Assembly: GCA_965216945.1 (NCBI GenBank)
Contig: CBDCGU010000003.1
Span: forward strand, 3,868 to 67,867
Length of the DNA: 64,000 nt
From: Acidimicrobiia bacterium
GTDB taxonomy: Bacteria > Actinomycetota > Acidimicrobiia > Spongiisociales > UBA5794
Direction: 5' to 3'
In this document: positions 1-56,795 of the stretch, one piece after another
Position numbering within the stretch: the first letter of the stretch is position 1
Layout of the letters: each line of letters starts with the position of its first letter
The notes under the pieces: model-generated
The model's database searches: none
Told to the model about the DNA's origin: nothing
The model's input: only the letters and a program-made list of their open reading frames with translations
Translations under genes and position numbers: made by a program

Positions 1-1
1 G

Positions 2-277: not shown

Positions 278-387
278 CCCCGACGGCCGACCCGCAACGG
301 CAGCCGCGCTTTGCGTCATCAGCGCTACCATGCCCCGCCCATCCCCCTGTTGTGGCGACAGCAATCAAACACGGGAGCACAACGACG

Positions 388-7347: not shown

Positions 7348-7360
7348 GGAGCCAGACCTG

Positions 7361-30225: not shown

Positions 30226-30867
30226 CTAGACCGAGAGTGCCAGCAGATTGTCGATCCGGGTGCGGATCTCGCTCTCGTCGAGAGCGCCGGGCCATCCGTC
30301 GACGATGGTGTCTCCGCCGGTGACGAGGAAGGTCACCGGCTGGTACGGCACGCCGTAGAGATCCCAGATGGAGTCGTCCAGACCCCACAACAGTGCGTCT
30401 CCGAACAGCTCGTCTGCCCGCTCTGCGGTCGAGCCGAGGTCGGACCGGCCCGCTACGGCGACGAATGCTACCTCGTCCTCATAGTCCTGGGAGATGTTGG
30501 CGACGACGGGCAACTCCCGCCGGCAGGTGGGTCACCACTCCGCCCAGAAGACGAGGTACACCGGCCTCTCCTCAGCACTCAGCGAGAACTCCCCGCCATC
30601 GGCGAGGGCCAGCGTGAAATCGGGAGCGGGGTCGCCTTCGGGCTCCGGTTGCGTCCCGCCCGCCGTCGTGGTCGGATCGTCGACATCCGCTGTTCCCCCG
30701 TCCCCGGCTACGGCGGCGGTGGTCGTGGTGTCACCGTCGTCGGTCTGGGCCTCCGCCGTGGCGGCGTCACCGCCGTGGGTCGTCGTGGCCCCGGAGTCGT
30801 CGCTACCGCCGCCGCAGGCCGCGGCGACGATCACAAGAGCGGCCAGAACGGCGATCCATCGCTTCAT
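30226..30867 (-). CDS. TlpA-like thioredoxin lipoprotein with TGA at the first active-site Cys position (putative selenoprotein, UxxC)
   Basis: ORFs 30532..30897 and 30226..30513 are in the same frame, separated only by TGA at 30532-30534. The joined translation reads ...ERPVYLVFWAEW-[TGA]-PTCRRELPVVANISQDYEDEVAFVAVAGRSD..., i.e. the W-C-P-x-C thioredoxin motif with U in place of the first C. Lipoprotein signal MKRWIAVLAALVIVAAACGG. Confidence 0.55.
30504..30522 (-). promoter_or_regulatory. Candidate bacterial SECIS hairpin for the TlpA-like UGA
   Basis: mRNA UGA CCCACCUGC CGGCGGG-AGUUG-CCCGUCG: a 7-bp stem starts 9 nt after the UGA, with a G/U-containing apical loop at about +17 to +21. Confidence 0.35.
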
Positions 30868-37706: not shown

Positions 37707-37716
37707 CGGTCGACGA

Positions 37717-39606: not shown

Positions 39607-40309
39607 CCTCGGACGCCAGCAGGCGGCGGCGGGTCACGAGCTCTTTGGCGGTTTCGGCTGCCACTGCGGCATCGCGGCAGTAGGCGTCGGCGCCGACGGC
39701 GTCGCCGAACTCCTCGTTGAGGGGCGCTCCACCGACCAGCACAAGGTAGTCGTCGCGGATGCCTCTCTCTTTCATCGCCTCGATCACGACTTTCATGTAG
39801 GGCATCGTGGTGGTGAGAAGCGCCGACATCCCCAAGATGTCGGGTTTGTGCTGCTCGAGCGCATCCAGGTACTCGTCGACGTCGGTGTTGATGCCGAGAT
39901 CGACGACGTCGAACCCGGCCCCTTCCAGCATCATCGCCACGAGGTTCTTGCCGATGTCGTGAATGTCGCCTTTGACGGTGCCGATCACGACCTTGCCGAC
40001 GTTGGCGGCGCCGGTCTCGGCGAGCAGCGGCCGGAGGATCTCCATTCCCGCCTTCATCGCATTTGCGGCCAGCAACACCTCCGGGACGAAGAGGATGCCG
40101 TCCCGGAAGTCGATGCCGACGATCCGCATGCCTTCGACCAGGGCCTCGTTGAGCACGTCGCCGGCGGTCCACTCCCGCGACAGGAGGATGTTCGTGCCCT
40201 CGACGATCTCCTCGGCGAGGCCGTCGTAGAGGTCGTCGTGCATCTGTTCGACGAGCTCTTCGTCCGACAGGCTGCTGAGGTCGAGTTCTTGGTCGTGTTC
40301 GTCAGTCAT
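39599..40309 (-). CDS. Cobalamin-binding corrinoid protein (MtgC/MtbC-like)
   Basis: ATG 40309 (MTDEHDQ...). B12-binding cap plus Rossmann domain with the DxHxxG motif (KGDIHDIGKNLV) and MSALLTTT. Confidence 0.8.
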   Translation of the reverse strand: MTDEHDQELDLSSLSDEELVEQMHDDLYDGLAEEIVEGTNILLSREWTAGDVLNEALVEGMRIVGIDFRDGILFVPEVLLAANAMKAGMEILRPLLAETGAANVGKVVIGTVKGDIHDIGKNLVAMMLEGAGFDVVDLGINTDVDEYLDALEQHKPDILGMSALLTTTMPYMKVVIEAMKERGIRDDYLVLVGGAPLNEEFGDAVGADAYCRDAAVAAETAKELVTRRRLLASEDV

Positions 40310-40398
40310 GGTGGTCTCGCGGGGCGGGCTGGTGGCAACCAACCGGTGCCGTCCCACGACCTGGTTTGGCTGTCCTTGATCCGGCCCGATGGTTCCAT

Positions 40399-40426
40399 GA
40401 TACGGAACGGTCCTACATGGTGGAAC
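40399..40426. promoter_or_regulatory. Conserved 28-nt cis-element GATACGGAACGGTCCTACATGGTGGAAC (copy 1) in the corrinoid-operon / dmgdh divergent region
   Basis: 24 of 28 positions are identical to 55267-55294 upstream of fhs. The element is built from overlapping imperfect palindromes of the type GTnCCAC-ATS-GTGGnAC. Confidence 0.5.
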
Positions 40427-40574
40427 ACTACAACACCGGCATCCCCCTCGCCACCCGTTCCGCTGCCGCCGGATCGACCCGGAGTCACATTGAACAGCCC
40501 TCTGGCGGGCCAGTAGCGTGGTTCTGGGAATGCGTCACCCGCCGCCGGCAGGTAGTGTTCCACCATGTAGCATC

Positions 40575-40591
40575 GTGCCACATCGTGGTAC
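40575..40591. promoter_or_regulatory. Palindromic site GTGCCAC-ATC-GTGGTAC immediately upstream of dmgdh
   Basis: 7-3-7 inverted repeat with one mismatch. Related to the sites at 55278-55294 and 57595-57611. Confidence 0.45.
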
Positions 40592-40630
40592 GCCGCGCCC
40601 AGCCACCACCCGCATGAAGGAGCAGACGTC

Positions 40631-43141
40631 GTGAGCGATCTACCCACGAAGGCAAAGGTCGTCGTCGTCGGCGCCGGCATCGTCGGGAACTCGGTCGTGA
40701 AGCATCTCGCCGAGCTCGGGTGGCGTGAGATCGTGCAGCTCGACAAAGGCCCACTCCCCAACCCCGGCGGCTCCACAGGACATGCGTCCAACTTCATCTT
40801 CCCGGTCGACCACAACAAGGAAATGGCCTACCTGACGCTGGACAGCCAGCAGCAGTACGAAGAGATGGGCGTCAACACGACGTGTGGTGGCATCGAAGTG
40901 GCCCGGACCGAGGCGCGCATGGAGGAGCTGAAGCGGCGTATGACGTCCGCCACCGCCTGGGGCATCGAGTCCAGGCTGCTCACCCCGCAGGAGGTGAAGG
41001 AGATGGTGCCGTTCATCGACGAGGGCATCATCCTCGGCGGATGGTACACACCGAGCGTCTCGGTCGTCGACTCCCTACGCGCCGGCACGATCATGCGAGA
41101 ACGTGCCATGGAGCTCGGGGCCCTCACCGTCTCCCCCAACACCGAGGTGACCGACGTCACCGTCGAGGACGGCGCCGTGACGGGAGTCACGACGGACAAG
41201 GGCCACATCGAATGCGAGTACGTCGTGATCGCCTGTGGTGTGTGGAGCCCGCGCATCGCGGCAATGGCGGGAGCGACCATCCCACTGACGCCCGCCGTTC
41301 ACCAGATGATCGACGTGGGGCCGCTCGAGCCGCTGCAGTCGACCAACAACGAGATCGGCTACCCGATCGTGCGCGACATGGACACGTTCTGCTACGAAAG
41401 ACAGACGGCGGGTTCCATGGAGGTCGGCTCGTACGCCCACCGACCGATCTTCCACCACCCCGACACGATCCCCTCGATCGAGGAGTCGCGGCTCTCCCCC
41501 ACCGAGCTGCCGCTGACGATGGACGACTTCGACCCCCAACTCGAACAGGCCCTGGAGCTGATGCCGTTCCTCGGCGACGCCGAGATCAAATACGGCATCA
41601 ACGGATTGCTCTCCCTGACACCGGATGCGATGCCCCTCGTCGGCGAGACGGTCGAGGTACGAAACCTCTGGTCGTGTGCCGCCATCTGGATCAAGGAGGG
41701 CCCGGGCACGGGCCGGGCGCTCGCCGAGTGGATGACCTATGGCTATCCGGAGATCGACCCGCACGCCTCGGACATCGCCCGTTTCTACACCTACCAGCGG
41801 AGCGAGCATCACATCCTCGAGCGCTGCGCCGAGCACTTCAACAAGACATACGGCATCGTTCACCCGCGCGAGCAGTGGGACTCGGAGCGGCTGAGCCGGA
41901 TCGCCCCGTTTCACGTGCGGACTCAAGCGCTGGGCGCCGTCTACTTCGAGGCCGGAGGGTGGGAGCGGCCCCACTGGTACGAGAGCAATACCCCGCTGCT
42001 GGAGAAGTACGCCGACCAGATCCCGGAGCGTCCCCACGAGTGGGATGCCCGATGGTGGTCGCCGATTCAGAACGCCGAGCACCTCGCCCTCCGCGAGAGC
42101 GTCGGAATGGTCGACGTGACAGCGTTCGCCATCTTCGACTTCACCGGACCTGGAGTGGTCGACTACATCGAGAAGATGGCGGTGAACAAGTGCGACCGAC
42201 CCGTCGGCGCGGCGATCTACACACCGCTGTTGAACGAGCAGGGAGGGTTCCGCTCCGACCTGACCATCATGCGCCTCGGCGACAGGCACTTCCGGGTCGT
42301 CACGGGTGGATTCGACGGAGGACGCGACAAGTACTGGTTCCGCAAGTGGCTGCCGCACGATGGGTCGGTGGTGATGGAGGACATGACATCCGCGATCTGC
42401 ACGGTCGGCGTGTGGGGCCCCAACGCCCGCAACCTCGTGAGCACGGTCACCCGCGACGACATCTCCAACGAAGGCTTCCGCTACGGCTCCGTCAAGCAGG
42501 TGACCATCGGGTCCATCCCATGCACGATGTTCAGGATCTCCTACGTCGGTGATCTGGGCTGGGAGATCTACACCAACATGGAGCACGGTCTGAAGCTGTG
42601 GGACCTCCTCTGGGAGGCCGGCCAGGAGTTCGGCGTGGTCCCGGTCGGAGCCGGGGTCTACGGGACGACGGGGCGGCTCGAGAAGGGATACCGGCTGATG
42701 GGAGCCGAGCTCGAGTCCGAGTACACGCCGATCGAGGCCGGTCTGGCCCGGCCCAAGGTGAAGGCCGCCGACTTCATCGGCAAGGCGGCCTATCTCGCCG
42801 CCCGCGAGGAAGAGCCCGCCGCCATCTGCTGCACGCTCACGATGGAGTCGCACGTCTCCGACTCCGGTATTGCCCGGTTCCCGATGGGCGGCAACGAACC
42901 GATCCTCACGCTCGACGGCCGGCGCATCGTCGATGGCAAGGGCCGAGTCTCGCGAGTCACCAGCGCCGGCGCCGGTCCCTCGGTCGGCAAATACCTGCTT
43001 CTCGGATACCTGCCGCCCGAGTACGCCGTCGTGGGCACCGAGTTGCAGATCATGTACCAGAACGAGTTGTTCCCGGTGAAGGTGGCCGTAGCCGGGAGCA
43101 CACCGCTGTTCGATCCCGACGACACGCGCATGAAGGCCTGA
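40631..43141 (+). CDS. Dimethylglycine/sarcosine dehydrogenase family (FAD oxidase domain + GcvT-like folate-binding domain)
   Basis: 836 aa. Dinucleotide fold VVVVGAGIVGNS. GGSTGHASN carries the conserved His for covalent FAD. C-terminal aminomethyltransferase-like domain. GTG start with a GAAGGAG RBS. Confidence 0.85.
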   Translation: MSDLPTKAKVVVVGAGIVGNSVVKHLAELGWREIVQLDKGPLPNPGGSTGHASNFIFPVDHNKEMAYLTLDSQQQYEEMGVNTTCGGIEVARTEARMEELKRRMTSATAWGIESRLLTPQEVKEMVPFIDEGIILGGWYTPSVSVVDSLRAGTIMRERAMELGALTVSPNTEVTDVTVEDGAVTGVTTDKGHIECEYVVIACGVWSPRIAAMAGATIPLTPAVHQMIDVGPLEPLQSTNNEIGYPIVRDMDTFCYERQTAGSMEVGSYAHRPIFHHPDTIPSIEESRLSPTELPLTMDDFDPQLEQALELMPFLGDAEIKYGINGLLSLTPDAMPLVGETVEVRNLWSCAAIWIKEGPGTGRALAEWMTYGYPEIDPHASDIARFYTYQRSEHHILERCAEHFNKTYGIVHPREQWDSERLSRIAPFHVRTQALGAVYFEAGGWERPHWYESNTPLLEKYADQIPERPHEWDARWWSPIQNAEHLALRESVGMVDVTAFAIFDFTGPGVVDYIEKMAVNKCDRPVGAAIYTPLLNEQGGFRSDLTIMRLGDRHFRVVTGGFDGGRDKYWFRKWLPHDGSVVMEDMTSAICTVGVWGPNARNLVSTVTRDDISNEGFRYGSVKQVTIGSIPCTMFRISYVGDLGWEIYTNMEHGLKLWDLLWEAGQEFGVVPVGAGVYGTTGRLEKGYRLMGAELESEYTPIEAGLARPKVKAADFIGKAAYLAAREEEPAAICCTLTMESHVSDSGIARFPMGGNEPILTLDGRRIVDGKGRVSRVTSAGAGPSVGKYLLLGYLPPEYAVVGTELQIMYQNELFPVKVAVAGSTPLFDPDDTRMKA

Positions 43142-43143
43142 CG

Positions 43144-43911
43144 ATGCGTGTGCTGGTGTGTGTCAAGCGTGTGCCGGCCCCAGGGGCCAAGATCGCCGTC
43201 ACCCCGGACGGGCGAGACGTCGACACCAATCTCCTCGGGTTCACCGTCAGCCCCCACGAGGAGTGTGCGGTGGAGGAAGCGGTCCGCATCGTCGAGAACC
43301 ATGGCGGCAGCGCCACCGTGCTCACGCTTGGGCCCCCCGAAGCCGAGGAGCAAATCCGCACGGCCTACTCGGTGGGTGCCACACACGGGGTGCTGATCGA
43401 AACGCCCGTCACCGACTGGGAGCCCATCGCCACGGCATCAGCCATCACGGCGACGGTTCAGGAGCTGGAGGCAAGGGACGGACCATTCGACCTGCTGCTG
43501 TTCGGCAACGAGTCGGCCGACTCGGGAGGATTCCAGGTCGGCATCCGCGTCGCAAGAGCGCTTGGTCGCCCCATCGTCTCAGGCATCAAGGGCATCGACA
43601 TCGGCGACGGCACGATCACAGCCCGACGGGAGACACCGCACGGCTCCGAGGTCTACGAGGTACCACTCCCGGCGGCGGTCGCCGTCAAAGAAGGAATCAA
43701 CCTGCCCCGCTACCCGACCCTCAAGACCCGCATGTCGGCCAAGAAGCTCCCGGTGGAGAAGACGGCCGCCGAGCCGGCACCGGGGCCGCAGTCAAAGGTC
43801 AGGTTCGAGGCGCCGCCTCAGGTGGCTTCGTCCGTGGAGATCCTCGGGAACGGGCCGGATGCGGCACGTGCCGTGGTCGACGTGCTGGAAGAGCTGGGGA
43901 TCGTCGGATGA
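43144..43911 (+). CDS. etfB: Electron transfer flavoprotein beta subunit
   Basis: MRVLVCVKRVP...LLLFGNESADSGGFQVG...LPRYPTLKTRMSAKKLPVE. Its stop overlaps the etfA start. Confidence 0.85.
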   Translation: MRVLVCVKRVPAPGAKIAVTPDGRDVDTNLLGFTVSPHEECAVEEAVRIVENHGGSATVLTLGPPEAEEQIRTAYSVGATHGVLIETPVTDWEPIATASAITATVQELEARDGPFDLLLFGNESADSGGFQVGIRVARALGRPIVSGIKGIDIGDGTITARRETPHGSEVYEVPLPAAVAVKEGINLPRYPTLKTRMSAKKLPVEKTAAEPAPGPQSKVRFEAPPQVASSVEILGNGPDAARAVVDVLEELGIVG

Positions 43912-44879
43912 CGTATCTCTATCTCCTCGAGCACGACCGTGGCGAGATGAACGATGCGACATTGGGTGGGCTGACCGCCGCCGTCGAGCTGGCTCGCGGC
44001 CACGGGACGGTGGTCGACGTCGCCGTCTTGGGAAGGAGTGGTGACGCGCTTGCGGCGGACCTCGCCGGCTCGGGAGCCGCCACGGTCCATCAGGTCCACC
44101 ACGAGCTGCTCGCCGACTACGGACCGGACGCTTGGGCAGAGGCCCTGAGCGCCCTGGGAGACGCAGTGGGAGCGACCGCCTATCTCGCCACGGGCACCGA
44201 TCGGGGCAACGAGGTGCTGGCCCACGTGGCGGCGATCGCCGGCACTGCGATGGTCGCCAACTGCCTCGATGTCCACGACACCGGCGAAGCGTGGGAAGTC
44301 AAGCGCCTGCGCTGGGGCGGGAGCCTGCACGAGATCACCCGGCTCGAAGCTCCGCTGAGGATTGCCACATTTGCCCCACACACCACCGAACCCAAGACCG
44401 TGTCGGGTGACGCTCCCACGATCACCACATTCACCCCGGATCTCAGCGAGCGCGCTGCGATCACTCTGGTGCGGGATCGGGTCGTGACCGCCGAGGGTGT
44501 CACCCTGGCCACCGCACCCGTGGTGGTCAGCGGCGGGCGCGGCGTCGGCAGCGCCGAAGGCTTCGCCGCTCTCGAGGAACTGGCGGATCTGGTGAATGGA
44601 GTCGTGGGTTGCAGCCGTGTCGTGACCAACAACGGGTGGCGGCCGCACTCCGATCAGGTCGGGCAGACCGGTACCGTGGTCGCCCCCGATCTGTACATCG
44701 CATGCGGCATCTCCGGCGCCGTCCAGCACTGGGTTGGCATGATGAACGCCAAACACGTCTTGGCCATCAACACGGATCCGGAAGCCCCGATGGTCACCAA
44801 GGCCGACTGGGCGGTGGTCGCCGACCTGCACGCAGTGCTCCCCGCCGTGGTCGAGGAGATCAAGCGCCGCAGGGGTTGA
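43908..44879 (+). CDS. etfA: Electron transfer flavoprotein alpha subunit
   Basis: C-terminal FAD-binding domain [15 protein letters not shown]...[20 protein letters not shown]. Confidence 0.85.
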
Positions 44880-44890
44880 GCGACCCCGTA

Positions 44891-44944
44891 CCCGTTCTTG
44901 CGTAGCTCATGGCGGCATTCCGCCGTGAGCTACGCAAGAACGGG
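44891..44944 (+). terminator. Large hairpin (19-bp perfect stem with a structured 16-nt loop) just after etfA; candidate intrinsic terminator without a U-tract
   Basis: CCCGTTCTTGCGTAGCTCA-[TGGCGGCATTCCGCCG]-TGAGCTACGCAAGAACGGG begins 12 nt after the etfA stop. Confidence 0.5.
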
Positions 44945-45067
44945 CCGCGATCGCCCTCGCTCGACCCAGCACGACGCACAACGGAACGATCAGTCGTCGA
45001 TCACCTGTCAGAATTCCGGTGTAGGCGAACAATCAACAGATGAGACCGACACCGGGGAGCAGATCCG

Positions 45068-45613
45068 GTGCCCGACACCACGAGAACCCGGTTCACCCGC
45101 CTCTACGAGGAGTATTACGACGACGTGCTCGCCTACTGCAGCCGCCGCATCGGCCCAACCGAGGCCGACGACGCCACCGCCGACGTGTTCGCCGTGGCCT
45201 GGCGCCGCATCGATGACATCGAATGGCCTACGGTGCGTCCCTGGCTGTACGGCGTCGCGCGCGGCGTCCTCGCCAATCGTCTTCGGTCGAGTGGGCGACG
45301 GAGGCGGCTGCTGGATCGCATTTCCGGCATGGCTCCCGTCTTCGAGGAGCTGCCCGAGGTGCAGGTGGTGCGACGCGCCCAGGACGAAGCCATCATCGCC
45401 GCCGTGCAGAGTCTCAAACCCACCGATCAGGAGGTGCTCTTGCTCGCCGCATGGGAGGAGCTCAAGGCACCCGAGATCGCACAGGCGCTCGGAATCTCCA
45501 CGTCGGCGGCAGAGCAGCGCCTGCATCGCGCCAAGAGGCGTCTTGCGGCGGCGCTGCCCTCGCACCAGGCCTCCACCAACCAGCCGCTGCGCTCCGGCGA
45601 TGGAGGCCGATGA
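45068..45613 (+). CDS. ECF-subfamily RNA polymerase sigma-70 factor
   Basis: 181 aa. Region 2 (YYDDVLAYCSRR...ADDATADVFAVAW) and region 4 HTH (ELKAPEIAQALGISTSAAEQRLHRAKRRL). Confidence 0.75.
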   Translation: MPDTTRTRFTRLYEEYYDDVLAYCSRRIGPTEADDATADVFAVAWRRIDDIEWPTVRPWLYGVARGVLANRLRSSGRRRRLLDRISGMAPVFEELPEVQVVRRAQDEAIIAAVQSLKPTDQEVLLLAAWEELKAPEIAQALGISTSAAEQRLHRAKRRLAAALPSHQASTNQPLRSGDGGR

Positions 45614-46695
45614 TGTCCGTCGAGGCAGCCTTCCGACAGCTTCAGGAAGCAAACCCGGTGCCTGAGCCCGGGGCGCTCAGACGGCAGCGCCGGGGCGCAG
45701 CCGACTTCCACGCCGAGGCCAAGCGAAGGAGCACGACCTTGCAGACACAGCAGATCCCTCGCGTCGCCACCCGCCCCGACGAGTCACATCGGCACTCGAG
45801 ACGGTGGGCGGCAGCCCTCGCCTCCGGCGTCGGACTGCTGGCCGTGTTCGTCATCTTCTCCGGAATCGGCGACCGTGGATTGGACACCGTCGCCGGGGAG
45901 GGTGTCTTGACGGTCGATGTGCTCACCGACCTCGACATGTCGCCATTCACCGATGCAACCGGGGACGTCGCCACCGGCTTCGACATCGACCTCCTTGCAG
46001 AGATGGCTCGGCGCAGCGGCCTCACCCTCGCTACCTCCGAGAGCCTGAGCGTGTTCTCCGCACAGCCCCAGGCGCACCTCTTCCTGGCGGAGTTCGGGAC
46101 GGTCGACGTGACGACCCGCGGGTACCGGGCGGACATCTACAGGTATGCAGACGCCATCAACGTGAGCGGTGACCGGCTGGAACGCCAAGCCCGATTCACC
46201 GACCCCTACTTCCTCCAGGACTTCGCATTGATCGTCGATCCTCAGGCGTCGCCCGATGTGACGTCTACCGCCGACCTGACCGCCGGCGATGTCGTGGCCG
46301 CTTGGGGTGATGCCAATGCGTCCTTTTGGATCGACGACAATCTCGCACCAAGGGGCATCGTGCCCGGCTACGTATTCGACGCAGGACCACGCCGGCCGGG
46401 CTCGGCGTCTCCGCAGACACCATTGGACTCCGTCGCCGCCGGCGAGGCGGTGGCTGCCATCGTGCACTCCGCCATCGCATCCGACTTGCTGCAGCAGCAT
46501 CCGCACCTGAGCGTCGTCGACGTCATCGACGCCAACGTCCCGCTCGGCTTCGCCGTCGACCCGGACAACCCGGCGCTCCTGATGGCGCTCAACCGAGCGC
46601 TGGCGGAGATGATCGAAGATGGCTCCTATCAGGCGATCTACGACACGTGGTTCGACGATCCAAGCGGGAGCGTGGCCGCAGGAGAACGCAGCTGA
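45610..46695 (+). CDS. Putative anti-sigma factor: N-terminal cytoplasmic segment, single TM, extracytoplasmic family-3 solute-binding-protein-like (SBP_bac_3) domain
   Basis: ATGATG start overlapping the sigma-factor stop. TM segment AAALASGVGLLAVFVIF. Periplasmic region with GFDIDLLAEMARRSGL...AAIVHSAIASDLL, amino-acid-binding-protein-like. Confidence 0.5.
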   Translation: MMSVEAAFRQLQEANPVPEPGALRRQRRGAADFHAEAKRRSTTLQTQQIPRVATRPDESHRHSRRWAAALASGVGLLAVFVIFSGIGDRGLDTVAGEGVLTVDVLTDLDMSPFTDATGDVATGFDIDLLAEMARRSGLTLATSESLSVFSAQPQAHLFLAEFGTVDVTTRGYRADIYRYADAINVSGDRLERQARFTDPYFLQDFALIVDPQASPDVTSTADLTAGDVVAAWGDANASFWIDDNLAPRGIVPGYVFDAGPRRPGSASPQTPLDSVAAGEAVAAIVHSAIASDLLQQHPHLSVVDVIDANVPLGFAVDPDNPALLMALNRALAEMIEDGSYQAIYDTWFDDPSGSVAAGERS

Positions 46696-47153
46696 TGAAA
46701 GCGATCGATGCCGCCGTCTGGAACAGCACGTCGTTCTGGAGTGAGGACGCAGAGCACGAGTTCGCCCGGGCTCGGCGGCGCGCCACCCGAGAACGGTTGC
46801 TCGCCTGGGTGCTGAATCGTTGCGCCCGGTTGGAGTCCTTCGATGCGCTTCGCACCCGGCGCCGGCTGCTGCCGACAGCGGGACGCCGTATCGCCACCGT
46901 GCCGCTGGATCGCATCGTGGGCACATTGGGGAAGGGCGAGTTGTTCACGCGGTCGTTCCATCCGAAGGCGAACCGTCTCAAGGCCCGCTGGAAGAGCGTG
47001 TACGCCCTGGTTCGCGGCCTGCGCGGATCAGATCCTGTCGAGCTGTACGAGGTGGGCGACGTCTACTACGTGGTGGACGGCCACTTCCGCATCTCGGTGG
47101 CGCGTTCCCTGAAGTCGCCGTCGATCGAAGCCAGCATCCGCCGCTGGCAGTAG
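46695..47153 (+). CDS. Hypothetical protein with a ParB/sulfiredoxin-like DGHxR motif
   Basis: 152 aa ending ...VGDVYYVVDGHFRISVARSLK. Its start overlaps the upstream stop by 1 nt. Confidence 0.35.
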   Translation: MKAIDAAVWNSTSFWSEDAEHEFARARRRATRERLLAWVLNRCARLESFDALRTRRRLLPTAGRRIATVPLDRIVGTLGKGELFTRSFHPKANRLKARWKSVYALVRGLRGSDPVELYEVGDVYYVVDGHFRISVARSLKSPSIEASIRRWQ

Positions 47154-47362
47154 CCCGGGCGCACCATTGCCATCGCATGCATCTCTGCTAACTTCCACGT
47201 CAGAAACAGCGCCAGATTTGACTCGTCAGCTTGCGGGCGCTCTAGAAGTACAGCTAAAGCGACACGGCACGAGCCGCTTGCTTTAGCAGCGGCTCTTCTC
47301 TTTGGAGCCTCTGCTTCGGCCCGCACCCCGGCGAGCGAATCTCGAGGGGGATCGGAGACGGT

Positions 47363-48391
47363 ATGAGCAGCGGCACACGACAGACAGCCTTCCAGACACT
47401 GCTCGCCACCGGCAACGTGCTGGTGGCGGATGGCGGGATGGGCACGTCGCTGTTCTCGCTCGGCCTCGCCAACGGCGAGTCTCCGGAGCTGCTCAACGTT
47501 GCCGAGCCCGACATCGTGGTGAAGGCCCACCGCGGGTTCGTCGAGGCCGGCGCCGACATCATCCTGACCAATACGTTCGGAGGGAACCGGCGCCGTCTGG
47601 CACTCCACCAGCTGCAGGACAAGGTGGCAGAGCTCAATGCCGCGGCGGTCGATGTGGCTCGTGAAGCTGCGGCCCTCGGTGACCGCCCGGTGGCCGTTGC
47701 CGGCAGCATTGGACCTACCGGCGATCTCATCGCGCCCCTCGGTGAGCTCTCGTGGGACGAAGCCGTCTCCGTCTTCTCCGAGCAGGCTCGATCCCTTGCT
47801 GGATCCGGAGTCGATGTGCTGTGGATCGAGACCATGTCCAGTGTCGAGGAGCTCTCGGCGGCTTTCGATGCGACCGATGGCATCGATCTGCCCGTGGTCA
47901 CCACGATGAGCTTCGACACGAACGGCAGCACGATGATGGGGGTCGCCCCGGCGCAACTCGCTCGCTGGTCGCGGGACGCCGCGCGCGGCCCGGCGGCGTT
48001 GGGCGCCAACTGCGGCATCGGGCCCGGCGACGTGCTGGCGGCGGTTCACGACATCGTGCAGACGGCACCCGGAAGCGTCGTCGTGGCCAAGGCCAATGCC
48101 GGGATTCCCGCCTACACCAAGACGGGTGGCCTCACGTACCCGACGGCAGCCGTGGACATGGTCGACTACGCCCGGCTGGCGATCGGTGTCGGTGCACGCA
48201 TCATCGGAGGTTGCTGCGGATCGACCCCCGACCATCTCTCATCGATCCGGGAGGTCGTGGACACGGTGGACATGGGAGAGGCGGCCGCCGATCTCACCGC
48301 GATCGAGGCTCGGTTCGGCACCAGCGGCCCGGTGGCGCAGGCGTCGCGGGAGCGGCGCAACCGGCGGCGGACGTCGCGCCGGTCGGCCTGA
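47363..48391 (+). CDS. Homocysteine S-methyltransferase family protein (betaine--homocysteine methyltransferase-like)
   Basis: Pfam S-methyl_trans-type fold: VLVADGGMGTSLF...DIILTNTFGGN...GANCGIGP...GGCCGSTPDHL (zinc/homocysteine-binding Cys triad). GGAGACGG RBS. Confidence 0.7.
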   Translation: MSSGTRQTAFQTLLATGNVLVADGGMGTSLFSLGLANGESPELLNVAEPDIVVKAHRGFVEAGADIILTNTFGGNRRRLALHQLQDKVAELNAAAVDVAREAAALGDRPVAVAGSIGPTGDLIAPLGELSWDEAVSVFSEQARSLAGSGVDVLWIETMSSVEELSAAFDATDGIDLPVVTTMSFDTNGSTMMGVAPAQLARWSRDAARGPAALGANCGIGPGDVLAAVHDIVQTAPGSVVVAKANAGIPAYTKTGGLTYPTAAVDMVDYARLAIGVGARIIGGCCGSTPDHLSSIREVVDTVDMGEAAADLTAIEARFGTSGPVAQASRERRNRRRTSRRSA

Positions 48392-48395
48392 GAGC

Positions 48396-48680
48396 TCAGC
48401 GGTAGAACTCGACGTCGAACAGGACCGGGCCGTCGAATGCGAGGTGGTGTGGCCGGCCTGGGGGAATGTCCACGCAGCGGCCGCTCTCGACTCGGATGAC
48501 GCCCGTTGCGTCATCCTCGAACCGGAAGAGCAACGCTCCGTCGTGGACGATGAGCCGGCCCCACACCCCGTCGGCGATACGGTGCGCCTTGCGGAACCCT
48601 GCGGGGGCGCTGGTTTCGTCGAACCGAGACGTCGTCCGCACATGCTCGAGACCGGGCGGCATCGTGGGATGGTCGCTCAC
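48396..48680 (-). CDS. DUF1971-domain (cupin-like, TehB N-terminal-type) small protein
   Basis: 94 aa (...GVWGRLIVHDGALLFRFEDDATGVIRVESGRCVDIPPGRPHHL...). Confidence 0.5.
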   Translation of the reverse strand: MSDHPTMPPGLEHVRTTSRFDETSAPAGFRKAHRIADGVWGRLIVHDGALLFRFEDDATGVIRVESGRCVDIPPGRPHHLAFDGPVLFDVEFYR

Positions 48681-48687
48681 GGCCCCG

Positions 48688-49637
48688 TCATGCCGATCGG
48701 GCTCGTCGCAGCACGACGTCGATCGGAGTCGCCTCCATGTCGCCGAGCTCCTGGACGTACTCGTAGCCGAAGCGTCCCTTGATGCACAGGTGGCCGTTGG
48801 TCACCGAGTGATCGATCGGTGAGGTGACCTTGACGATCCGGTTGTCTTGCACGTGCAGGTCCAGATTGCACCCGACACCGCAGTAGGAGCACACGGTCCG
48901 GGTCACCGTCTGCTCCTCCTCGTTCCACATGTCCGCTTCACGCAGCTCGTACTCCGATCGGAACATCAATGCCCCGGTCGGGCACACCCCGATGCAGTTG
49001 CCACAGAACACACAGGCAGAATCGGTCAGGCCCGTGTCGAACTCTGTGGAGATACGGGCGTCGAACCCACGGCCGGCAACACCGAGCGCAAAGGTGTTCT
49101 GCGCCTCGGTCCCGCATGCCTGGACACACTTGTAACAGAGGATGCATTTGGAGTAGTCGCGCACATAGAGCTCGTTGTCGATCTTCACCGGCTGCGCGAC
49201 GGAGGCGGCCTGCTCGCCGTCTGGCGGAGCGTGATGACCGGGATGGCGGTGGTCGCGATCGTCCTGGGCGGGCTGTGCCGGGCCAAACCGATCAGGATCG
49301 GCTCCGTAGTCGTCGATCCACGCCTTGGTCGATGCATCGACGAGATCCATGTCGACGGAGGAGCCGAGCAGTTCGAAGACGAGCTTGCGGGAATGCCGCA
49401 CCCGCTCGCTGTCGGTGTGCACCACCATTCCCTCCTCGACGGGTCGGGAGCAGGACGGCACCAGCGCCCGTGAGCCCTCCACCTCGACCACACAGACCCG
49501 GCACACGTTGACCGGCGTCAGGTTGTCGAGGTAGCAGAGCGTGGGCTGCTCGCGGCCCATGCTCCGGCAGGCGTCGAGGATGGTCGAGCCCTCGGGCACG
49601 GCGGTCCCCGCCCCGTCGATGGTGACATGGACTTCCG

Positions 49638-49641
<4 letters not shown>
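48688..49641 (-). CDS. Formate dehydrogenase Fe-S subunit (NuoG/HylA-like): [2Fe-2S] ferredoxin + 2x[4Fe-4S] + Molybdop_Fe4S4 domain, lacking the molybdopterin catalytic domain
   Basis: ATG 49641 (MTEVHVTIDGAG...), overlapping the nuoEF-like stop (ATGA). 2Fe-2S region CYLDNLTPVNVCRVCVVEV. Ferredoxin CxxCxxCxxxCP motifs. C-terminal CSYCGVGCNLDLHVQDNRIVKVTSPIDHSVTNGHLCIKGRFGYEYV equals the N-terminal Fe4S4 domain of FdhF-type enzymes. Confidence 0.75.
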
Positions 49642-51410
<1,769 letters not shown>

Positions 51411-51424
51411 CAGCTTGAGGTCCA

Positions 51425-53317
51425 CTAGGCCACCGTTTCGATGCGCACTGCGGTGGCTTTGAACTCTGCGGTACCCGACTTCGGGTCCCACACGTCGATC
51501 GTGAGCTCGTTGACGTCGGCTTCGTCGGGGAAGTGGAAGGCCATGAACGCAAGCCCGGGGCGAAGCGACTCGTGGAACCATACGGGTACGTCGATGCTGC
51601 CTCGCCGCGATGTCACTCGGACGATGTCCCCTTCGGTCACGCCGAGGGTCGCTCCGTCCTCGGGTGCGACCTCGATGATGCCACCGTGGCGAATCGGCGA
51701 TCGGTAGCGGCCGGACTGAACGCCGGTGTTGTACGAGTCGAGCCGGCGGCCGGTCGTGAGGCGGATGGGGAAGTCGTCGCTCAGCTCATCGACCGGAGGC
51801 ACCCACTCGGTCGGTATGAACGGTGCGGGATCTCGTGGCATCGGATCTTCCCACAGCCACCCATGGAGGTACTGGGTTCCGGGATGACTCTCGTCGGGAC
51901 ATGGCCATTGCAGCCCGCCCAGCTCTTCGAGGCGGCGGTACGACATCCCGCCGTGCATCGGTGACAGGCTGCGACATTCGTCCCACACCTCCTCGGCCGT
52001 CGGGATGCCCCAGCCGACCCCGAGCCGTTCTGCGAGCAGGCTGATGATCTCGAGGTCGTCCTTGGCATCTCCCGGCGGGTCGAGTGCCTTGCGAACGCGC
52101 TGCACCCGTCGCTCGGACGACGTCACGGTTCCCTCGCTCTCCGCCCAGCCGGCGGCAGCAGGGAGGACCACGTCGGCCATCTCGGCGGTCTTGGTGAGGA
52201 ACATGTCCTGCACGATGATGAAGTCGAGGCCGTCGAGGATCTTGCGGATGTGCCCTACGTCGGCCTCCGACTGTGCCGGGTTCTCGCCGATGCAATACAG
52301 CGCGTTGATCTCGCCGCGCTCCATGGCTTCGAACATGAGCGAGATGTGGAGCCCGTTCCGCGGCGGGATGGGATGCCCCCAGAGAGCCTCGAACTTGCCG
52401 CGGATCTCGGCATCTTCGACGTTCTGGAACCCGGGGAGCTTGTTGGGGAGCGCCCCCATGTCCCCGCCGCCTTGCACGTTGTTCTGGCCGCGGATCGGAA
52501 CGAGCCCTGATCCGTAACGTCCGACGTGTCCTGTGAGCATCGCCAGGTTGATGAGCGCCAGGACGTTGTCGGTGGCGTTGTGATGCTCGGTGATCCCCAG
52601 CGTCCAGCAGATCTGTGCGGAGCCTGCGGTCGCGTAGGCATGGGCCATCTCCTTGATGGCCGCAGCCGGCACACCGGTGACCTGCTCGGCCCGGTGCAAC
52701 GTCCACTCGTCGACCGTCGTGCGATACGCCTCGTAGCCAGAGGTGGAGTGCGCGATGAACTCCTCGTTCTGCAGCCCGGCGTCGATGATCTCCCGACCGA
52801 CGGCATTGGCCAGGGCGATGTCCGACCCGACATCCAGCCCGAGCCACATCTCGGCCCAGGCCGACGAGGTCGTGCGCCGAGGATCGACCGCAAACAACCT
52901 CGCACCGTTACGCACACCCTTGAGAAGGTGGTGAAAGAAGATCGGGTGCGCTTCGCGCGCGTTGGATCCCCACAGCAAGATGACGTCTGTGGTCTCGATC
53001 TCCTCGTAGGAGGAGGTGCCTCCTCCTGCTCCCAGCACTGCCGCCAGACCGGCGACGGAGGGAGCGTGTCAGGTGCGGTTGCACGAGTCGATGTTGTTCG
53101 AGCCCATGGCAATCCGGGAGAACTTCTGTGCGAGGAAGTTCATCTCGTTCGTCGCCTTCGAGCACGAGAACATTCCGTAGGACTGGCCGTCGTGCCGCCG
53201 CAATCCCGTCGCTGCGGCATCGAGCGCCTCGTCCCACGACGCGGCCACCAGGTCACCCTTCCGCCGCACCAGCGGGGTGGTCAACCGTCCACGCTGCATT
53301 CCGTCACCTCCTTCCAC
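51425..53317 (-). CDS. fdhA: Formate dehydrogenase catalytic (molybdopterin) subunit, selenocysteine-containing (TGA at 53069-53071 read as Sec)
   Basis: ORFs 53069..53317 and 51425..53038 share one frame and are separated by a single TGA. The joined translation ...FSRIAMGSNNIDSCNRT-U-HAPSVAGLAAVLGAGGGTSSYEEIETTDVILLWGSNAREAHPIFFHH aligns with E. coli FdhF ...GTNNVDCCARV-U-HGPSVAGLHQSVGNGAMSNAINEIDNTDLVFVFGYNPADSHPIVANH. The downstream sequence is a full MopB formate-dehydrogenase domain (VRGQNNVQGGGDMGALPNKLPGFQ...). The N-terminal Fe4S4 domain is absent from this gene. Confidence 0.8.
53040..53056 (-). promoter_or_regulatory. SECIS-like hairpin downstream of the fdhA UGA (GUCGCC-GGUCU-GGCGGC)
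   Basis: mRNA UGA CACGCUCCCUCC GUCGCC GGUCU GGCGGC: a 6-bp stem begins 12 nt after the UGA. The apical loop GGUCU is identical to the GGUC(U) loop of the E. coli fdhF SECIS. Confidence 0.5.
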
Positions 53318-53449
53318 TCTCGACTCTCAGAAATCTAGTGACTCACCTTCGCCGTGCTGGCGAAGCAGGCGCCGACGCCCGCAGCCGGCCCACCCCCTCC
53401 CGGTGCGAAGCGGGGCAGTGTGGGAAAGAGGTGCTGCCGAGGGCGACAG

Positions 53450-55246
53450 TCAGAACAATCCGACGACGTTGCCGTCCTCGTCGATATCGACATTCATGTA
53501 CGCAGGCTTCGTGCCGAGACCCGGCATGGTTCGCATCTCGCCGAGCAGCGGGTAGATGAAGCCGGCACCGACAGATGCGCGCACCTCCCGCACCGGCACC
53601 GTGAAGCCAGAAGGTGCGCCCTTCAGCGCCGGATCGTGAGAGATCGACAGATGGGTCTTCGCCATGCAGATCGGCAGATACCCGAATCCGGACCGCTCGA
53701 ACTCGGCGATCTGCCGCTCGGCGACCGGGGCGTATTCCACCTCGGCGGCTCCATAGATCTGCGTCGCGATCGCCTCGATCTTCTCCTTGATCGACCTGTC
53801 GAGCGGGTAGAGGAATCCGAACTTGGATGGCTCCTCGCACGCCTGCTCGACGGCAGCAGCGAGCTCCAACGCACCTTTGCCGCCCTCGGCCCAGTGGTTC
53901 GATCGCACGGCGGAGGAGGCGCCCGCATCCATCGCCGCCTCTTGGATGAGCTCCATCTCGCGCCGGGTGTCTGTCGGGAACTGGTTCACCGCAACCACCA
54001 CGGGCACGCCAAATCGACGGGCGTTGGCGACATGTGCCTTCAGATTGGAGAGCCCGGCGCGGAGCAGAGCGAGATTCTCCTCCGTGTAGGCCTTGTCGAG
54101 CGGTCTACCCGGCACGACCTTGGGACCGCCGCCGTGCGTCTTCAGGGCCCGCACCGTCGCCACCAAGACCACGCAGTCCGGCTTGAGGCCGGAGACCCGG
54201 CACTTGATGTCGAAGAACTTCTCCATACCCATGTCGGCACCGAAGCCGGATTCGGTCACGACGTAGTCCCCGATGTGGAGCGCCACCCTGTCGGCGAGGA
54301 TCGAGGAGTTGCCGTGGGCGATATTGGCGAACGGACCCGCATGGACGAAAGCGAGCTGCCCCTCGAGCGTCTGCATGATCGTCGGGTGGAGCGTCTCCTT
54401 CATCAGGACGGCGACTGCTCCGGCGACACCGACGTCCTCGAGTGTCACCGGCTCGTTGCTCTTCGAGGTGCCGATGACGACCCGCCCACAACGTTCGCGG
54501 AAGTTGCGCAGCGCCGAGGCATAGTCGGACCCGTCGACGAGGGCCAAGATCGCCATCAGCTCCGAAGCCACGGTGATGTCGTAACCGGTCTCACGCGGTC
54601 GCCCGTCCGCCGAGCCGCCGAGCCCGATGATCGTGTTACGGAGTGCCCGGTCGTTGACATCGACGACACGACGCCACGAGATCCTGTTGGGATCGAGGGA
54701 GATCCGTTCGAGCCCGAGTGCGGCGAGCCGGTCGTCGGTGAGCCTTCCCTCGTGGTACCAGCGGGCATCGATCGCGGCCGCAACGAGGTTGTGGGCCACC
54801 GAGATGGCATGCATGTCGCCCGTGAGATGGAGGTTGAACTCGTCCATGGGGATCACCTGGGAGTAGCCGCCACCGGCGGCACCACCCTTGATCCCGAACG
54901 TCGGGCCCATCGACGGCTGGCGGATGGCGGCGATCGCCTTGTGCCCGCGCCGCCCGAGCCCCTGGACGAGACCGATCGTCGTCGTGGTCTTGCCCTCGCC
55001 GAGTGGCGTGGGAGTGATCGCCGTGACGTCGACGTACTTGCCGTGCGGGTTGGCGCCGATTCTCTTGAGAGCGTCGAGGTGGACCTTGGCCTTTGTCGTG
55101 CCGAAGGCGATCAGGTCGTCGTCCTCGAGACCATGCCGACGGGCGACGTCGAAGATCGGCTCGACGGTCGCCTGCTGTGCGATCTCGAGATCGCTGGGAA
55201 CCCCGCTCATGGTTTCTCCGCGGTTGGTGAATCGGGCCGGGAGCAC
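53450..55246 (-). CDS. fhs: Formate--tetrahydrofolate ligase
   Basis: 598 aa FTHFS over the full length (TPTPLGEGKTTTTIGL...AVNQFPTDT...). Its stop is 130 nt upstream of the fdhA start. Confidence 0.9.
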   Translation of the reverse strand: MLPARFTNRGETMSGVPSDLEIAQQATVEPIFDVARRHGLEDDDLIAFGTTKAKVHLDALKRIGANPHGKYVDVTAITPTPLGEGKTTTTIGLVQGLGRRGHKAIAAIRQPSMGPTFGIKGGAAGGGYSQVIPMDEFNLHLTGDMHAISVAHNLVAAAIDARWYHEGRLTDDRLAALGLERISLDPNRISWRRVVDVNDRALRNTIIGLGGSADGRPRETGYDITVASELMAILALVDGSDYASALRNFRERCGRVVIGTSKSNEPVTLEDVGVAGAVAVLMKETLHPTIMQTLEGQLAFVHAGPFANIAHGNSSILADRVALHIGDYVVTESGFGADMGMEKFFDIKCRVSGLKPDCVVLVATVRALKTHGGGPKVVPGRPLDKAYTEENLALLRAGLSNLKAHVANARRFGVPVVVAVNQFPTDTRREMELIQEAAMDAGASSAVRSNHWAEGGKGALELAAAVEQACEEPSKFGFLYPLDRSIKEKIEAIATQIYGAAEVEYAPVAERQIAEFERSGFGYLPICMAKTHLSISHDPALKGAPSGFTVPVREVRASVGAGFIYPLLGEMRTMPGLGTKPAYMNVDIDEDGNVVGLF

Positions 55247-55266
55247 CCTAGCGCACAGTGTGCTGC

Positions 55267-55294
55267 GATACGGGACGGTCCCGCATCGTGGTAC
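55267..55294. promoter_or_regulatory. Conserved 28-nt cis-element GATACGGGACGGTCCCGCATCGTGGTAC (copy 2) upstream of fhs, divergent from the MFS gene
   Basis: 24/28 identity with 40399-40426. Contains the palindromes CGGGAC-G-GTCCCG and GTCCCGC-ATC-GTGGTAC. Confidence 0.5.
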
Positions 55295-55415
55295 GAACCG
55301 TCAGACCGAGATGGCCGAGAAGGTGTGGACACAGGGTCACCTGCGGCGATAGTCTCCCGGGCCCATCGCAACGACGTGGGACGGGCTCGAGATCCGGCGG
55401 ACCCGAGAGAGCGCG

Positions 55416-56795
55416 ATGACAGGCGTCGTCGTGCGGGCAACCGGCTCCCTGTCCGTGAGGACAGCTCTCTTGTCGCCGGGAGGCGTCGTGGGCATCGACC
55501 AGCGTCCCGCACCGGGCCATCGCAACACAACAACCACTGCCGCCCTCGGCTCGTGGGGCTTGCTGCTGGCAGTGTTGTTCCTCCAGTTGGGGAACGGTCT
55601 CCTGGGCACCGTCATCGGGCTCAGATCTGAGATCGCCGGGTTCGGCGACGGCGCGATCGGTCTCATCCTCTCCGGGTACTACACGGGCTTCCTGCTCGGC
55701 GCCATCGTCGTGCCGAAGTTCGTTGGCTCGGTCGGCCACATCCGCGTGTACGCCGCCCTCGCCTCCCTGGCCAGCACGGCTGCGCTCGTCTATGCGCTGA
55801 GCGACGATCCCATGCTGTGGTTCTTCATGCGGGTCGTGGGCGGGTTCGCCCTCTCCGGGCTGTACATCGTCGCCGAGAGCTGGCTCAACGATCAATCCAC
55901 CAACGAGACGAGGGGACGGCTCCTCTCGGTGTACATGATCGTGGTCATGGGCGGCATCGCCGCAAGCCAGCTCCTGCTCACGGTCGCGGACCCCGAGGGT
56001 GCCAGTCTCTTCATCTTGTCGTCGATCTTGGTCTCCCTCGCGGTCGTTCCCGTCACGCTCTCGGTCGGCTCGGCGCCAAGATTCGAATGGGCACCACGGT
56101 TGCCGGTCCGGGAGATCTGGAAGGCGGCACCCGCCGGCGTCGTCGGCGGCTTCGGCGCCGGAATCACCAACGGCGGCATCATGGCGATCGGGGCGGTCTA
56201 TGCGGCTCGCGTGGGGATGTCGGTCGATCGCATCGCCATCTTCATGGGCCTGCTGATCCTCGGCTCCGTCGTCCTGCAGTGGCCGATTGGTGCGATGTCG
56301 GACCGGATCCGCCGCAGGGTGGCCCTGCTCCTGGTTTCGCTGGCCGCCGCCCTCGTCGCCGCCGCCAATGCGCTGGTGGACCCGCTGAGCTCTGCCGCAC
56401 TCCTGGCGATCTTCACGTTCGGTGGACTCACTTTCCCGATGTATTCACTGTCACTCAGCCACATCAACGACCATGTCCCGGTCGGCACCACGATCTCCGT
56501 CAGCGCGGTCTACGTGTTCATCAGCGGCATCGGGGCGATCGTGGGGCCTCTGGCCGCCTCGGCCACGATGTCGGCCAGTGGCCCCGCCGGGGTGTTCTGG
56601 CTGATGTGTGGCGTTCACCTGGCCGTTGGACTCTTCGCCGCGGGCCGGATCCGTCTGCGGCACGGGCTGCCCGTGGACGCCCAGCGCCGCTATGCCCTCG
56701 TCCCGGCACGTGCGGGAGCGATGATCATCCACCTCGCCCGTCGTCGCCGCCGCTCCCCCGACTCGAACGGTGGAGGGCCGGCAGCCGACGGCTGA
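55416..56795 (+). CDS. MFS transporter
   Basis: 459 aa with 12 predicted TM helices and an MFS-like duplicated 6-TM pattern. Start uncertain. Confidence 0.6.
   Translation: MTGVVVRATGSLSVRTALLSPGGVVGIDQRPAPGHRNTTTTAALGSWGLLLAVLFLQLGNGLLGTVIGLRSEIAGFGDGAIGLILSGYYTGFLLGAIVVPKFVGSVGHIRVYAALASLASTAALVYALSDDPMLWFFMRVVGGFALSGLYIVAESWLNDQSTNETRGRLLSVYMIVVMGGIAASQLLLTVADPEGASLFILSSILVSLAVVPVTLSVGSAPRFEWAPRLPVREIWKAAPAGVVGGFGAGITNGGIMAIGAVYAARVGMSVDRIAIFMGLLILGSVVLQWPIGAMSDRIRRRVALLLVSLAAALVAAANALVDPLSSAALLAIFTFGGLTFPMYSLSLSHINDHVPVGTTISVSAVYVFISGIGAIVGPLAASATMSASGPAGVFWLMCGVHLAVGLFAAGRIRLRHGLPVDAQRRYALVPARAGAMIIHLARRRRRSPDSNGGGPAADG

Follow-up and report, generated by a model that had tools for sequence, protein, structure and literature searches.

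A codon very probably read as selenocysteine in the catalytic subunit of a split, three-subunit formate dehydrogenase from an Acidimicrobiia bacterium

Introduction

In this article, I consider a single codon in a stretch of 64,000 nucleotides from an Acidimicrobiia bacterium (NCBI GenBank assembly GCA_965216945.1, contig CBDCGU010000003.1, positions 3,868 to 67,867), which I call the window and in which positions are counted from the first letter. The gene for the catalytic subunit of a formate dehydrogenase (FDH) is interrupted there by one TGA, and comparison with orthologous genes makes it very probable that this in-frame TGA is a genuine selenocysteine (Sec) codon and that the interrupted gene encodes the catalytic subunit of an NAD-linked enzyme. 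The evidence lies in the position of the codon at the metal ligand, in its conservation across species and in a hairpin, placed as a selenocysteine insertion sequence (SECIS) would be, which is held fixed in those orthologues that carry TGA and decays in those that carry cysteine. The features on which the argument leans are the following.

51425..53299, minus strand: catalytic subunit of a predicted formate dehydrogenase, of the molybdenum or tungsten bis-pyranopterin guanine dinucleotide (Mo/W-bisPGD) type; 624 codons, with UGA as Sec at codon 77
53069..53071, minus strand: in-frame UGA at the Mo/W ligand position, with His next; TGA at the homologous codon in orthologues
53040..53056, minus strand: apical hairpin of the putative SECIS, GUCGCC (53056-53051), GGUCU (53050-53046) and GGCGGC (53045-53040); 6 bp and a 5-nt loop
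53028..53065, minus strand: extended form of the putative SECIS, with a lower helix GCUCCC (53065-53060) and GGGAGC (53033-53028); from the minimum-free-energy fold, weakly supported

The in-frame TGA and its conservation

Two minus-strand open reading frames (ORFs) in the same frame, 53069..53317 and 51425..53038, are split by a lone TGA at 53071..53069, just as the original prediction had described them from the letters of the sequence, and the joined translation reads GSNNIDSCNRT up to the UGA and HAPSVAGLAAVLGAGGGTSS beyond it (in a shorter excerpt, NNIDSCNRT followed by HAPSVAGLAAVL), so that a predicted tryptic peptide spanning the codon would be T-U-HAPSVAGLAAVLGAGGGTSSYEEIETTDVILLWGSNAR. 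The gene likely starts at the ATG at 53299-53297 and not at the mechanically chosen GTG at 53317, with GGAAGGAGG as ribosome-binding site at 53315-53307, seven nucleotides ahead of that ATG; the gap of 150 nucleotides that separates the gene from fhs contains in-frame stop codons. The motif around the codon, SCNRT-U-HAPSVAGL, has its counterpart in the CARV-U-HGPSVAGL of Escherichia coli FdhF, where the context (CCARV, stop, HGPSVAGL) was confirmed on the RefSeq record and where, out of 5426 complete E. coli genomes, 5419 have UGACACGGCCCAUCGGUUGCAGGUCUGCACC in fdhF. The U-H pair occupies codons 77-78, placing the catalytic His directly after Sec, and the proposal that the TGA stands at the Sec site of FdhF-type enzymes is borne out by the alignment, in which it coincides with the Sec/Cys ligand and Cys-type orthologues read SCNRT-C-HAPSVAGL.

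When genomes were scanned with a single representative for each species, the 80 closest orthologous loci were 67-84% identical to the query (going by record titles, some 33 are Acidimicrobiia, 20 belong to other Actinomycetota and 11 to Acidobacteriota, with a few labelled otherwise), and most of them match it from residues ~1-5 to 621-624. The homologous codon is TGA in all 80, and protein similarity lies on both sides of it in every one, so the scenario that the original prediction had named as damaging to it, a Cys codon in the relatives and a sequencing error here, is contradicted by the whole set. A second scan, of metagenomes, was seeded with a Cys-type protein and gave 80 further loci, 64 of which are nevertheless TGA-type; the Cys-type orthologues carry TGT or TGC at the codon where the others have TGA. 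One locus departs from both types: L090, an ENA scaffold (ERZ1761205, protein P0044), has CGA (Arg) in place of TGA and keeps a perfect hairpin, GUCGUC-GGUCU-GACGAC. The scaffold is from soil and 2.2 kb long, and the CGA is either a miscalled base or a sign that the Sec codon was lost very recently.

Protein databases give a different picture of the same genes, as the original prediction had anticipated when it warned that automated callers would split or truncate them. Among the best 120 matches from a search of 5.8 billion proteins, 114 are about 537 amino acids long, cover 86% of the query and were called from the first start codon past the TGA, and these truncated entries include P0001, the public gene call for the window's own gene (the others being 113 of 119). 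Only six of the best 120 are full-length (641-649 amino acids, 64-68% identity), five with Cys and one with Arg at the Sec site; where the source of a Cys form is named, it is Streptomyces, Nonomuraea or Thermopolyspora. For a whole clade, protein databases thus lack the active-site residue together with the 76 residues ahead of it.

A hairpin fixed in register and loop

The original prediction had also placed a hairpin, GUCGCC-GGUCU-GGCGGC, twelve nucleotides past the TGA and likened its loop to that of the E. coli fdhF element, and it is present as described: the stem begins 12 nucleotides past the UGA, against about 11 expected for a bacterial SECIS of the fdhF type, and the loop 18 nucleotides past it, inside the coding sequence, the hairpin forms the apical part of the minimum-free-energy fold, and the offset of GGUCUG from the UGA is identical to that in E. 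coli fdhF. In structures from E. coli and Moorella, the G-U of the apical loop is the contact made by SelB. Pairing was counted over 123 distinct TGA-type sequences, and codons over 129 TGA-type and 19 distinct Cys-type sequences. The hairpin proved to be conserved in orthologues of the first kind and decayed in those of the second: the apical helix is 99.7% paired in TGA-type sequences, where pair 18-30 is CG in 99 and GC in 24 with none unpaired, a switch that takes a pair of synonymous substitutions (GTC to GTG in Val and GCG to GCC in Ala), and one further switch, from G-C to A-U, is seen in the same helix. The covariation score was reached by none of 500 shuffles, slid registers are only 28-68% paired, and RNAalifold, given no guidance, arrives at the helix of 6 bp with its loop of 5 nt. 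In the lower helix, pairing drops to 82%; pair 9-42 shows some compensatory changes, and the outermost pair is for the most part left unpaired.

The same constraint can be read in the codons. Across the 80 genome loci, third positions within the hairpin are nearly invariant (Val GTC in 79, GCC or GTC in 80, Gly GGT in 79, Leu CTG in 80 and Ala GCG in 79), whereas flanking third positions, within 60 nucleotides past the TGA, take three or four bases freely. In the larger TGA-type set, the loop codons are Gly GGT in 128 of 129 and Leu CTG in 129 of 129, and all six pairs form in 127 of 129. The 19 Cys-type sequences have drifted, with glycine as GGC in 10, GGG in 8 and GGT in 1, leucine as CTG in 11, CTC in 7 and TTG in 1, and all six pairs in just 1. 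Taken with the position of the codon, this gives me high confidence that a functional Sec codon, served by a SECIS element, stands at 53071-53069.

Likely selenocysteine decoding in this genome

TGA is the terminator of 32 of the 36 Pfam-supported genes in the window, so UGA has not been reassigned throughout the genome and its recoding would be local. When the window was scanned for in-frame TGAs flanked on either side by coding signal, one further convincing case emerged, about 21 kb from the FDH gene.

30226..30867, minus strand: candidate selenoprotein, a lipoprotein-like TlpA/ResA-type thiol-disulfide oxidoreductase, with UGA at 30534-30532 in FWAEW-U-PTC (UxxC)
30522-30504, minus strand: hairpin of this gene, with loop AGUUG, conserved in two other lineages

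The predicted protein combines a signal peptide of the lipoprotein type with a long linker of low complexity, and its joined halves match the Redoxin, AhpC-TSA, Thioredoxin and ResA models, while the separate halves gave no match at a cut-off of 1e-5. Full-length homologues read FWAEWCPTC or WCPVC at the site of the UGA, and gene callers split this gene as well, into fragments of 107-121 and 94-95 amino acids; many other homologues are fragments of 94-98 amino acids whose start lies just past this point. In two other lineages, the codon is likewise TGA, the hairpin recurs with a stem pair changed from G-U to A-U, and trpD is again the neighbouring gene. The thiol:disulfide interchange and Prx-like selenoproteins described by Zhang et al. 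(2006; PMC1794560) have in common with it the thioredoxin fold, a CxxC turned into UxxC and, past the UGA, a hairpin; to these the window protein adds the signal peptide and the linker. Other in-frame TGAs were rejected: the one at 10407 (minus strand) has an Arg/Gly-rich, antisense-like translation opposite a plus-strand ORF, those at 5211, 19526, 21489 and 51962 run antisense to genes that have Pfam support, and the TGA at 33301 simply terminates an MTHFR-like (methylenetetrahydrofolate reductase) gene.

Because two independent UGAs stand at catalytic Cys positions, each with its own conserved hairpin, it is very likely that this genome decodes Sec. A locus from the Chloroflexota (L074:1273-4648) has selA, tRNA-Sec and selD 2.5-6 kb upstream of a TGA-type FDH gene; it is the only one of the loci L001-L080 in which ARAGORN and tblastn, the latter with SelA and SelD queries, detected these genes beside FDH.

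The expectation that Sec usage would be uncommon among actinobacterial lineages, which accompanied the original prediction, was overstated. Actinobacteria are one of three phyla rich in selenoprotein families (PMC1794560), about 40% of 244 mycobacterial genomes have the Sec machinery together with a Sec-containing FDH (PMC13449736), and in Actinomarina, a member of the class Acidimicrobiia, selC, selA and selD occur in all 84 genomes with a divergent selB (bioRxiv 10.64898/2026.04.03.716425). The Sec-containing FDH itself is the most widespread bacterial selenoprotein, reported from 822 organisms (PMC5029168).

Weighing the evidence and its alternatives

Several observations weigh against reading the UGA as a Sec codon with a SECIS, and I gather them here. 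On the single sequence, the fold is no better than chance, with z = -1.0 and -0.87 against dinucleotide shuffles, and the window contains 1395 TGA triplets, of which 11.8% precede a hairpin of 6 bp or more at the same distance, although a GGT loop is found in only 0.43%; since the single-sequence fold is unexceptional and chance hairpins are common, the signal is comparative and not thermodynamic. Cys-type orthologues can still fold other hairpins at the same site, one being that of Nonomuraea muscovyensis (L083:8241-8288), a long and nearly perfect hairpin (-30.7 kcal/mol, z = -3.56) in another register and with loop GCUG, which may be a fossil or a re-purposed structure. Pairing potential therefore comes partly from the VAGLAA/VAGLSA peptide and its GC-rich codons, and hairpin potential alone is not diagnostic of a SECIS; the diagnostic signal is the fixed register together with the fixed GGU loop. 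The predicted stem is uninterrupted and closes a 5-nt GGUCU loop with 6 bp and no bulged U, unlike the E. coli fdhF minihelix with its 4-nt GGUC loop and interrupted stem; to my knowledge, the bulged U of the upper stem is an E. coli feature that bacterial SECIS elements do not share universally. The hairpin has no match in any Rfam family, either in the window at gathering thresholds or in 52950-53150 at E <= 10, a null result that appears uninformative either way, as the library seems to be without a model fitting this kind of bacterial SECIS. Finally, selA, selB and selD, like tRNA-Sec, were all absent from the 64-kb window, in which about 50 ORFs were domain-scanned and which holds no tRNA at all.

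That last absence favours a decoding of the UGA by other means, through a near-cognate Trp or Cys tRNA or a suppressor tRNA, with the hairpin as a generic stimulator of read-through, as downstream structures can in general be. I regard this as improbable, though it fares best among the alternatives, given that the letters of the GGUCU loop and its offset are those of the SelB-binding fdhF element, that the second UGA in the window replaces a CxxC cysteine in a typical selenoprotein signature, and that the related Chloroflexota locus encodes tRNA-Sec, selA and selD beside its orthologue. The UGA also sits at the Sec/Cys ligand of the very family that provides the most widespread bacterial selenoproteins (PMC5029168).

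Slightly less probable again is a true stop, which would leave an N-terminal fragment of 76 residues and, by re-initiation at the GTG at 53038, a protein of 537 residues. That GTG lies 10 codons past the TGA and is the start chosen by gene callers, and the family does tolerate another split, with its Fe4S4 domain on a different subunit. However, a break at the TGA would remove the metal-ligand residue and part it from the catalytic His beside it, the stretch of ten codons that separates TGA and GTG (HAPSVAGLAA) is conserved as protein and holds a constrained hairpin that termination and re-initiation do not explain, and the Cys-type orthologues run continuously through the position. As for a sequencing error or recent inactivation of a Cys codon, in a pseudogene or mis-assembled Cys-type FDH, the existence of Cys-type orthologues, the single substitution that separates TGA from TGC or TGT and the CGA of P0044/L090, by which single-base variants at this codon do occur in assemblies, speak in its favour, but it has a negligible probability and looks effectively refuted by the comparative data, namely the TGA in 80 of 80 species-level genomes and 64 metagenome contigs, the protein conservation intact on both sides, the hairpin kept specifically with TGA and a coding-type GC content at third codon positions that runs on across the stop.

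A catalytic subunit without its proximal cluster

With the UGA taken as Sec, as I prefer to read it, the enzyme itself can be considered. The subunits and flanking genes of the operon are the following.

49638..51425, minus strand: NuoE-NuoF fusion (Pfam 2Fe-2S_thioredx, Complex1_51K, SLBB and NADH_4Fe-4S; NCBIfam nuoF_fam and NuoE)
48688..49641, minus strand: NuoG-like iron-sulfur (Fe-S) subunit, 317 amino acids (Pfam Fer2_4, Fer4_Nqo3, Fer4 and a C-terminal Molybdop_Fe4S4, FS0)
53450..55246, minus strand: fhs, formate--tetrahydrofolate ligase (Pfam FTHFS 1.8e-249), directly upstream of FDH
48396..48680, minus strand: small DUF1971 protein, 94 amino acids (Pfam DUF1971 2.7e-10), the last gene on the strand

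The catalytic subunit matches Pfam Molybdopterin (5e-67) and Molydop_binding (1.7e-26), and in the Pfam scan its ORF, which has stop codons upstream, showed neither Molybdop_Fe4S4 nor the N-terminal CxxCxxxC...C [4Fe-4S] domain. The active-site Arg motif RGQNNVQG is present, with PIRGQNNVQGGGDMGALPN aligning to PLRGQNNVQGACDVGALPN in the FdhF of 7qv7, and the joined translation aligns with FdhF/FdsA enzymes as had been expected of it: its best solved relatives are the FdhF of the hydrogen-dependent carbon dioxide reductase (HDCR; 7qv7), FdhH (1aa6) and FdsA (6tg9), aligned from about residue 60 or 307, just past the Fe4S4 domain that each of them possesses. Likewise, NCBIfam TIGR01591 (Fdh-alpha) scores 650.8 bits, below its cut-off of 666.25, with only profile positions 51-672 matched, and positions 1-50 are found with 55.9 bits on the product of the third gene (residues 314-363 of the mechanical ORF), whose C-terminus reads CSYCGVGCNLDLHV and then GHLCIKGRFGY; both pieces summed would exceed the cut-off. 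As the profile and the solved-relative alignments break at the same place, the alpha subunit is cut precisely behind its proximal cluster domain, with the catalytic half encoded first.

The remaining genes follow closely. The NuoE-NuoF fusion, with a [2Fe-2S] thioredoxin-like domain, an FMN/NAD(H) site and a [4Fe-4S] cluster site, has a GTG start sharing one base with the TAG stop of the catalytic gene, and the ATG of the NuoG-like gene at 49641, a start picked by comparison with a Streptomyces homologue, overlaps the nuoEF stop (ATGA). The order of catalytic gene, nuoEF and Fe-S gene is kept in 71 of the 73 loci with enough sequence and also in Cys-type operons, and fhs adjoins the FDH genes in 30 of 84 loci counted. 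The DUF1971 gene sits where Cys-type operons carry fdhD (FdhD-NarQ after the three FDH genes in L081-L084); no FdhD-NarQ domain was found among the window ORFs scanned, and the window operon holds no FdsD or FdhD gene. When 48200-55500 was scanned for promoters and terminators, no signal exceeded what shuffled sequence would give.

Comparison with known formate dehydrogenases

E. coli FdhF shares with the window enzyme the same Mo-bisPGD fold, the same two Pfam domains and the Sec-His pair in xCxRx-U-HxPSVAGL, and in both the Val-Ala-Gly-Leu codons form the SECIS; it differs in bearing its own N-terminal [4Fe-4S] domain, which in the window enzyme is found on another subunit, and in partnering hydrogenase 3, whereas the window enzyme has NuoE/F/G-like partners. 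In its cofactor modules, the latter is closer to the FdsABG type (Rhodobacter capsulatus, 6tg9/6tga; Cupriavidus necator; Methylorubrum Fdh1AB, 7vw6), with which it has in common the NuoE-like [2Fe-2S] module, the NuoF-like FMN/NAD site, the NuoG-like Fe-S chain and the FdhF-like Mo/W domain. The NuoE-NuoF fusion resembles Fdh1B of Methylorubrum. The alpha subunits of the FdsABG type are single polypeptides of ~950-990 amino acids with a Cys ligand, whereas the alpha subunit of the window is cut right past FS0, has its catalytic half first and would use a Sec ligand.

A third group, the FDH of Moorella thermoacetica, the FdhF-HylABC of Gottschalkia acidurici and the HDCR of T. kivui, likewise wires an FdhF-like subunit to separate Fe-S/flavin subunits, and several of these anaerobe enzymes carry Sec. 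The HDCR chain (7qv7) is the best-scoring solved relative (1.1e-152). In these systems, FdhF retains an Fe4S4 domain of its own, so the break comes before that domain and not after it; with 7qv7, the alignment begins at residue 63. The hosts of these enzymes are strict anaerobes, whereas the context in the window is one of methyl-group and folate oxidation in Acidimicrobiia. The Cys-type orthologues of Streptomyces, Nonomuraea and Thermopolyspora, annotated as 'molybdopterin oxidoreductase family protein' or 'formate dehydrogenase major subunit', are the nearest (64-65% identity), with the same split and the same order of the three genes, then fdhD; they differ in having TGT or TGC, drifting loop codons (GGC/GGG, CTC/TTG), frequent Ala to Ser changes and a lost SECIS register. 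As judged from these alignments, the window enzyme differs in the break point of its alpha subunit from all characterised FDHs compared.

A non-exhaustive search of the literature found no description of this split FDH architecture, the only feature here that might be new. If none has been described, the split could represent a new quaternary architecture for Mo/W formate dehydrogenases, with Sec as the dominant form in a widespread three-subunit NAD-linked FDH not characterised biochemically; I offer this tentatively, and with the same reserve the proposal joined to it, that the Sec form of such an enzyme occurs in Acidimicrobiia, other Actinomycetota, Acidobacteriota and Chloroflexota.

Genomic neighbourhood and a proposed route for formate

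Around the FDH genes lies an island of methyl-group and folate genes (metK, a SAM riboswitch, metH, MTHFR, an MttB that is not of the pyrrolysine (Pyl) kind with its corrinoid protein and RACo activator, DMGDH-like and BHMT-like genes, and fhs), of which the nearer part comprises the following.

33299-48391: methyl-group catabolism island, adjoining the FDH operon (48396-55246) and including the MTHFR-like gene, the non-Pyl MttB and DUF1638
34159-35697: MttB-family ORF, uninterrupted, 512 amino acids, covering the whole Pfam MTTB profile
35694-38186: RACo corrinoid activator
39599-40357: B12-binding corrinoid protein
40631-43141: dimethylglycine/sarcosine-type dehydrogenase (DAO-GCV_T)
47363-48391: homocysteine S-methyltransferase-like gene

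The enzyme sits behind fhs in this island, and a role in formate oxidation is proposed for that reason. The UGA at 53071-53069 would be decoded by Sec-tRNA(Sec), brought by a SelB tethered to the mRNA hairpin 12 nucleotides downstream through the exposed G-U of its loop, as at E. coli fdhF, and the resulting 624-residue catalytic subunit would assemble with the NuoE-NuoF fusion, which would supply the FMN/NAD site, and the NuoG-like Fe-S protein, whose C-terminus would give in trans the [4Fe-4S] domain that FdhF-type enzymes bear N-terminally. The product would be a soluble NAD(H)-linked enzyme with Mo or W, either metal being conceivable, and with Sec as its ligand. The fhs product can supply formate to the dehydrogenase, and most likely formate from formyl-tetrahydrofolate would be oxidised to CO2 with a yield of NADH, if catalysis runs in the direction that the neighbourhood suggests.

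Some observations on the island stand apart from the enzyme. Rfam PYLIS_3 matches at 34560-34659 (minus strand) with 38.9 bits against a gathering threshold of 38, inside the MttB-family ORF, which has no amber codon; it looks like coding homology in a non-Pyl MttB (a methyltransferase of the glycine-betaine type) and not like a Pyl signal. A SAM (S-box) riboswitch at 3680-3768 (plus strand, 74.7 bits) lies directly upstream of metH (3880-8308, plus strand), which is followed by MTHFR, and a SAM synthetase at the edge of the window (1-1539, plus strand) matches PF01941 AdoMet_Synthase at 7.9e-101, a family that I take to be archaeal-type, as distinct from the usual bacterial MetK domains, and presumably unusual for an actinobacterium.

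Implications

These results do not overturn current understanding, in which FdhA is already the commonest bacterial selenoprotein, and their main use is in the repair of a gene model that automated callers cut and as a flag for selenium dependence. The paired Sec and Cys operons provide a clear example of synonymous sites frozen by an RNA element within a coding region and, if the tentative reading of a new architecture is true, they would also form an unusually clean natural pair in which to ask why aerobic or microaerobic oxidisers of one-carbon (C1) compounds retain Sec. The use of Sec would mark the lineage, along with many Thermoleophilia, Acidobacteriota and sponge-associated relatives, as selenium-dependent for the oxidation of methyl-derived formate, a dependence that bears on trace-element limitation in the C1 cycling of both seas and soils.

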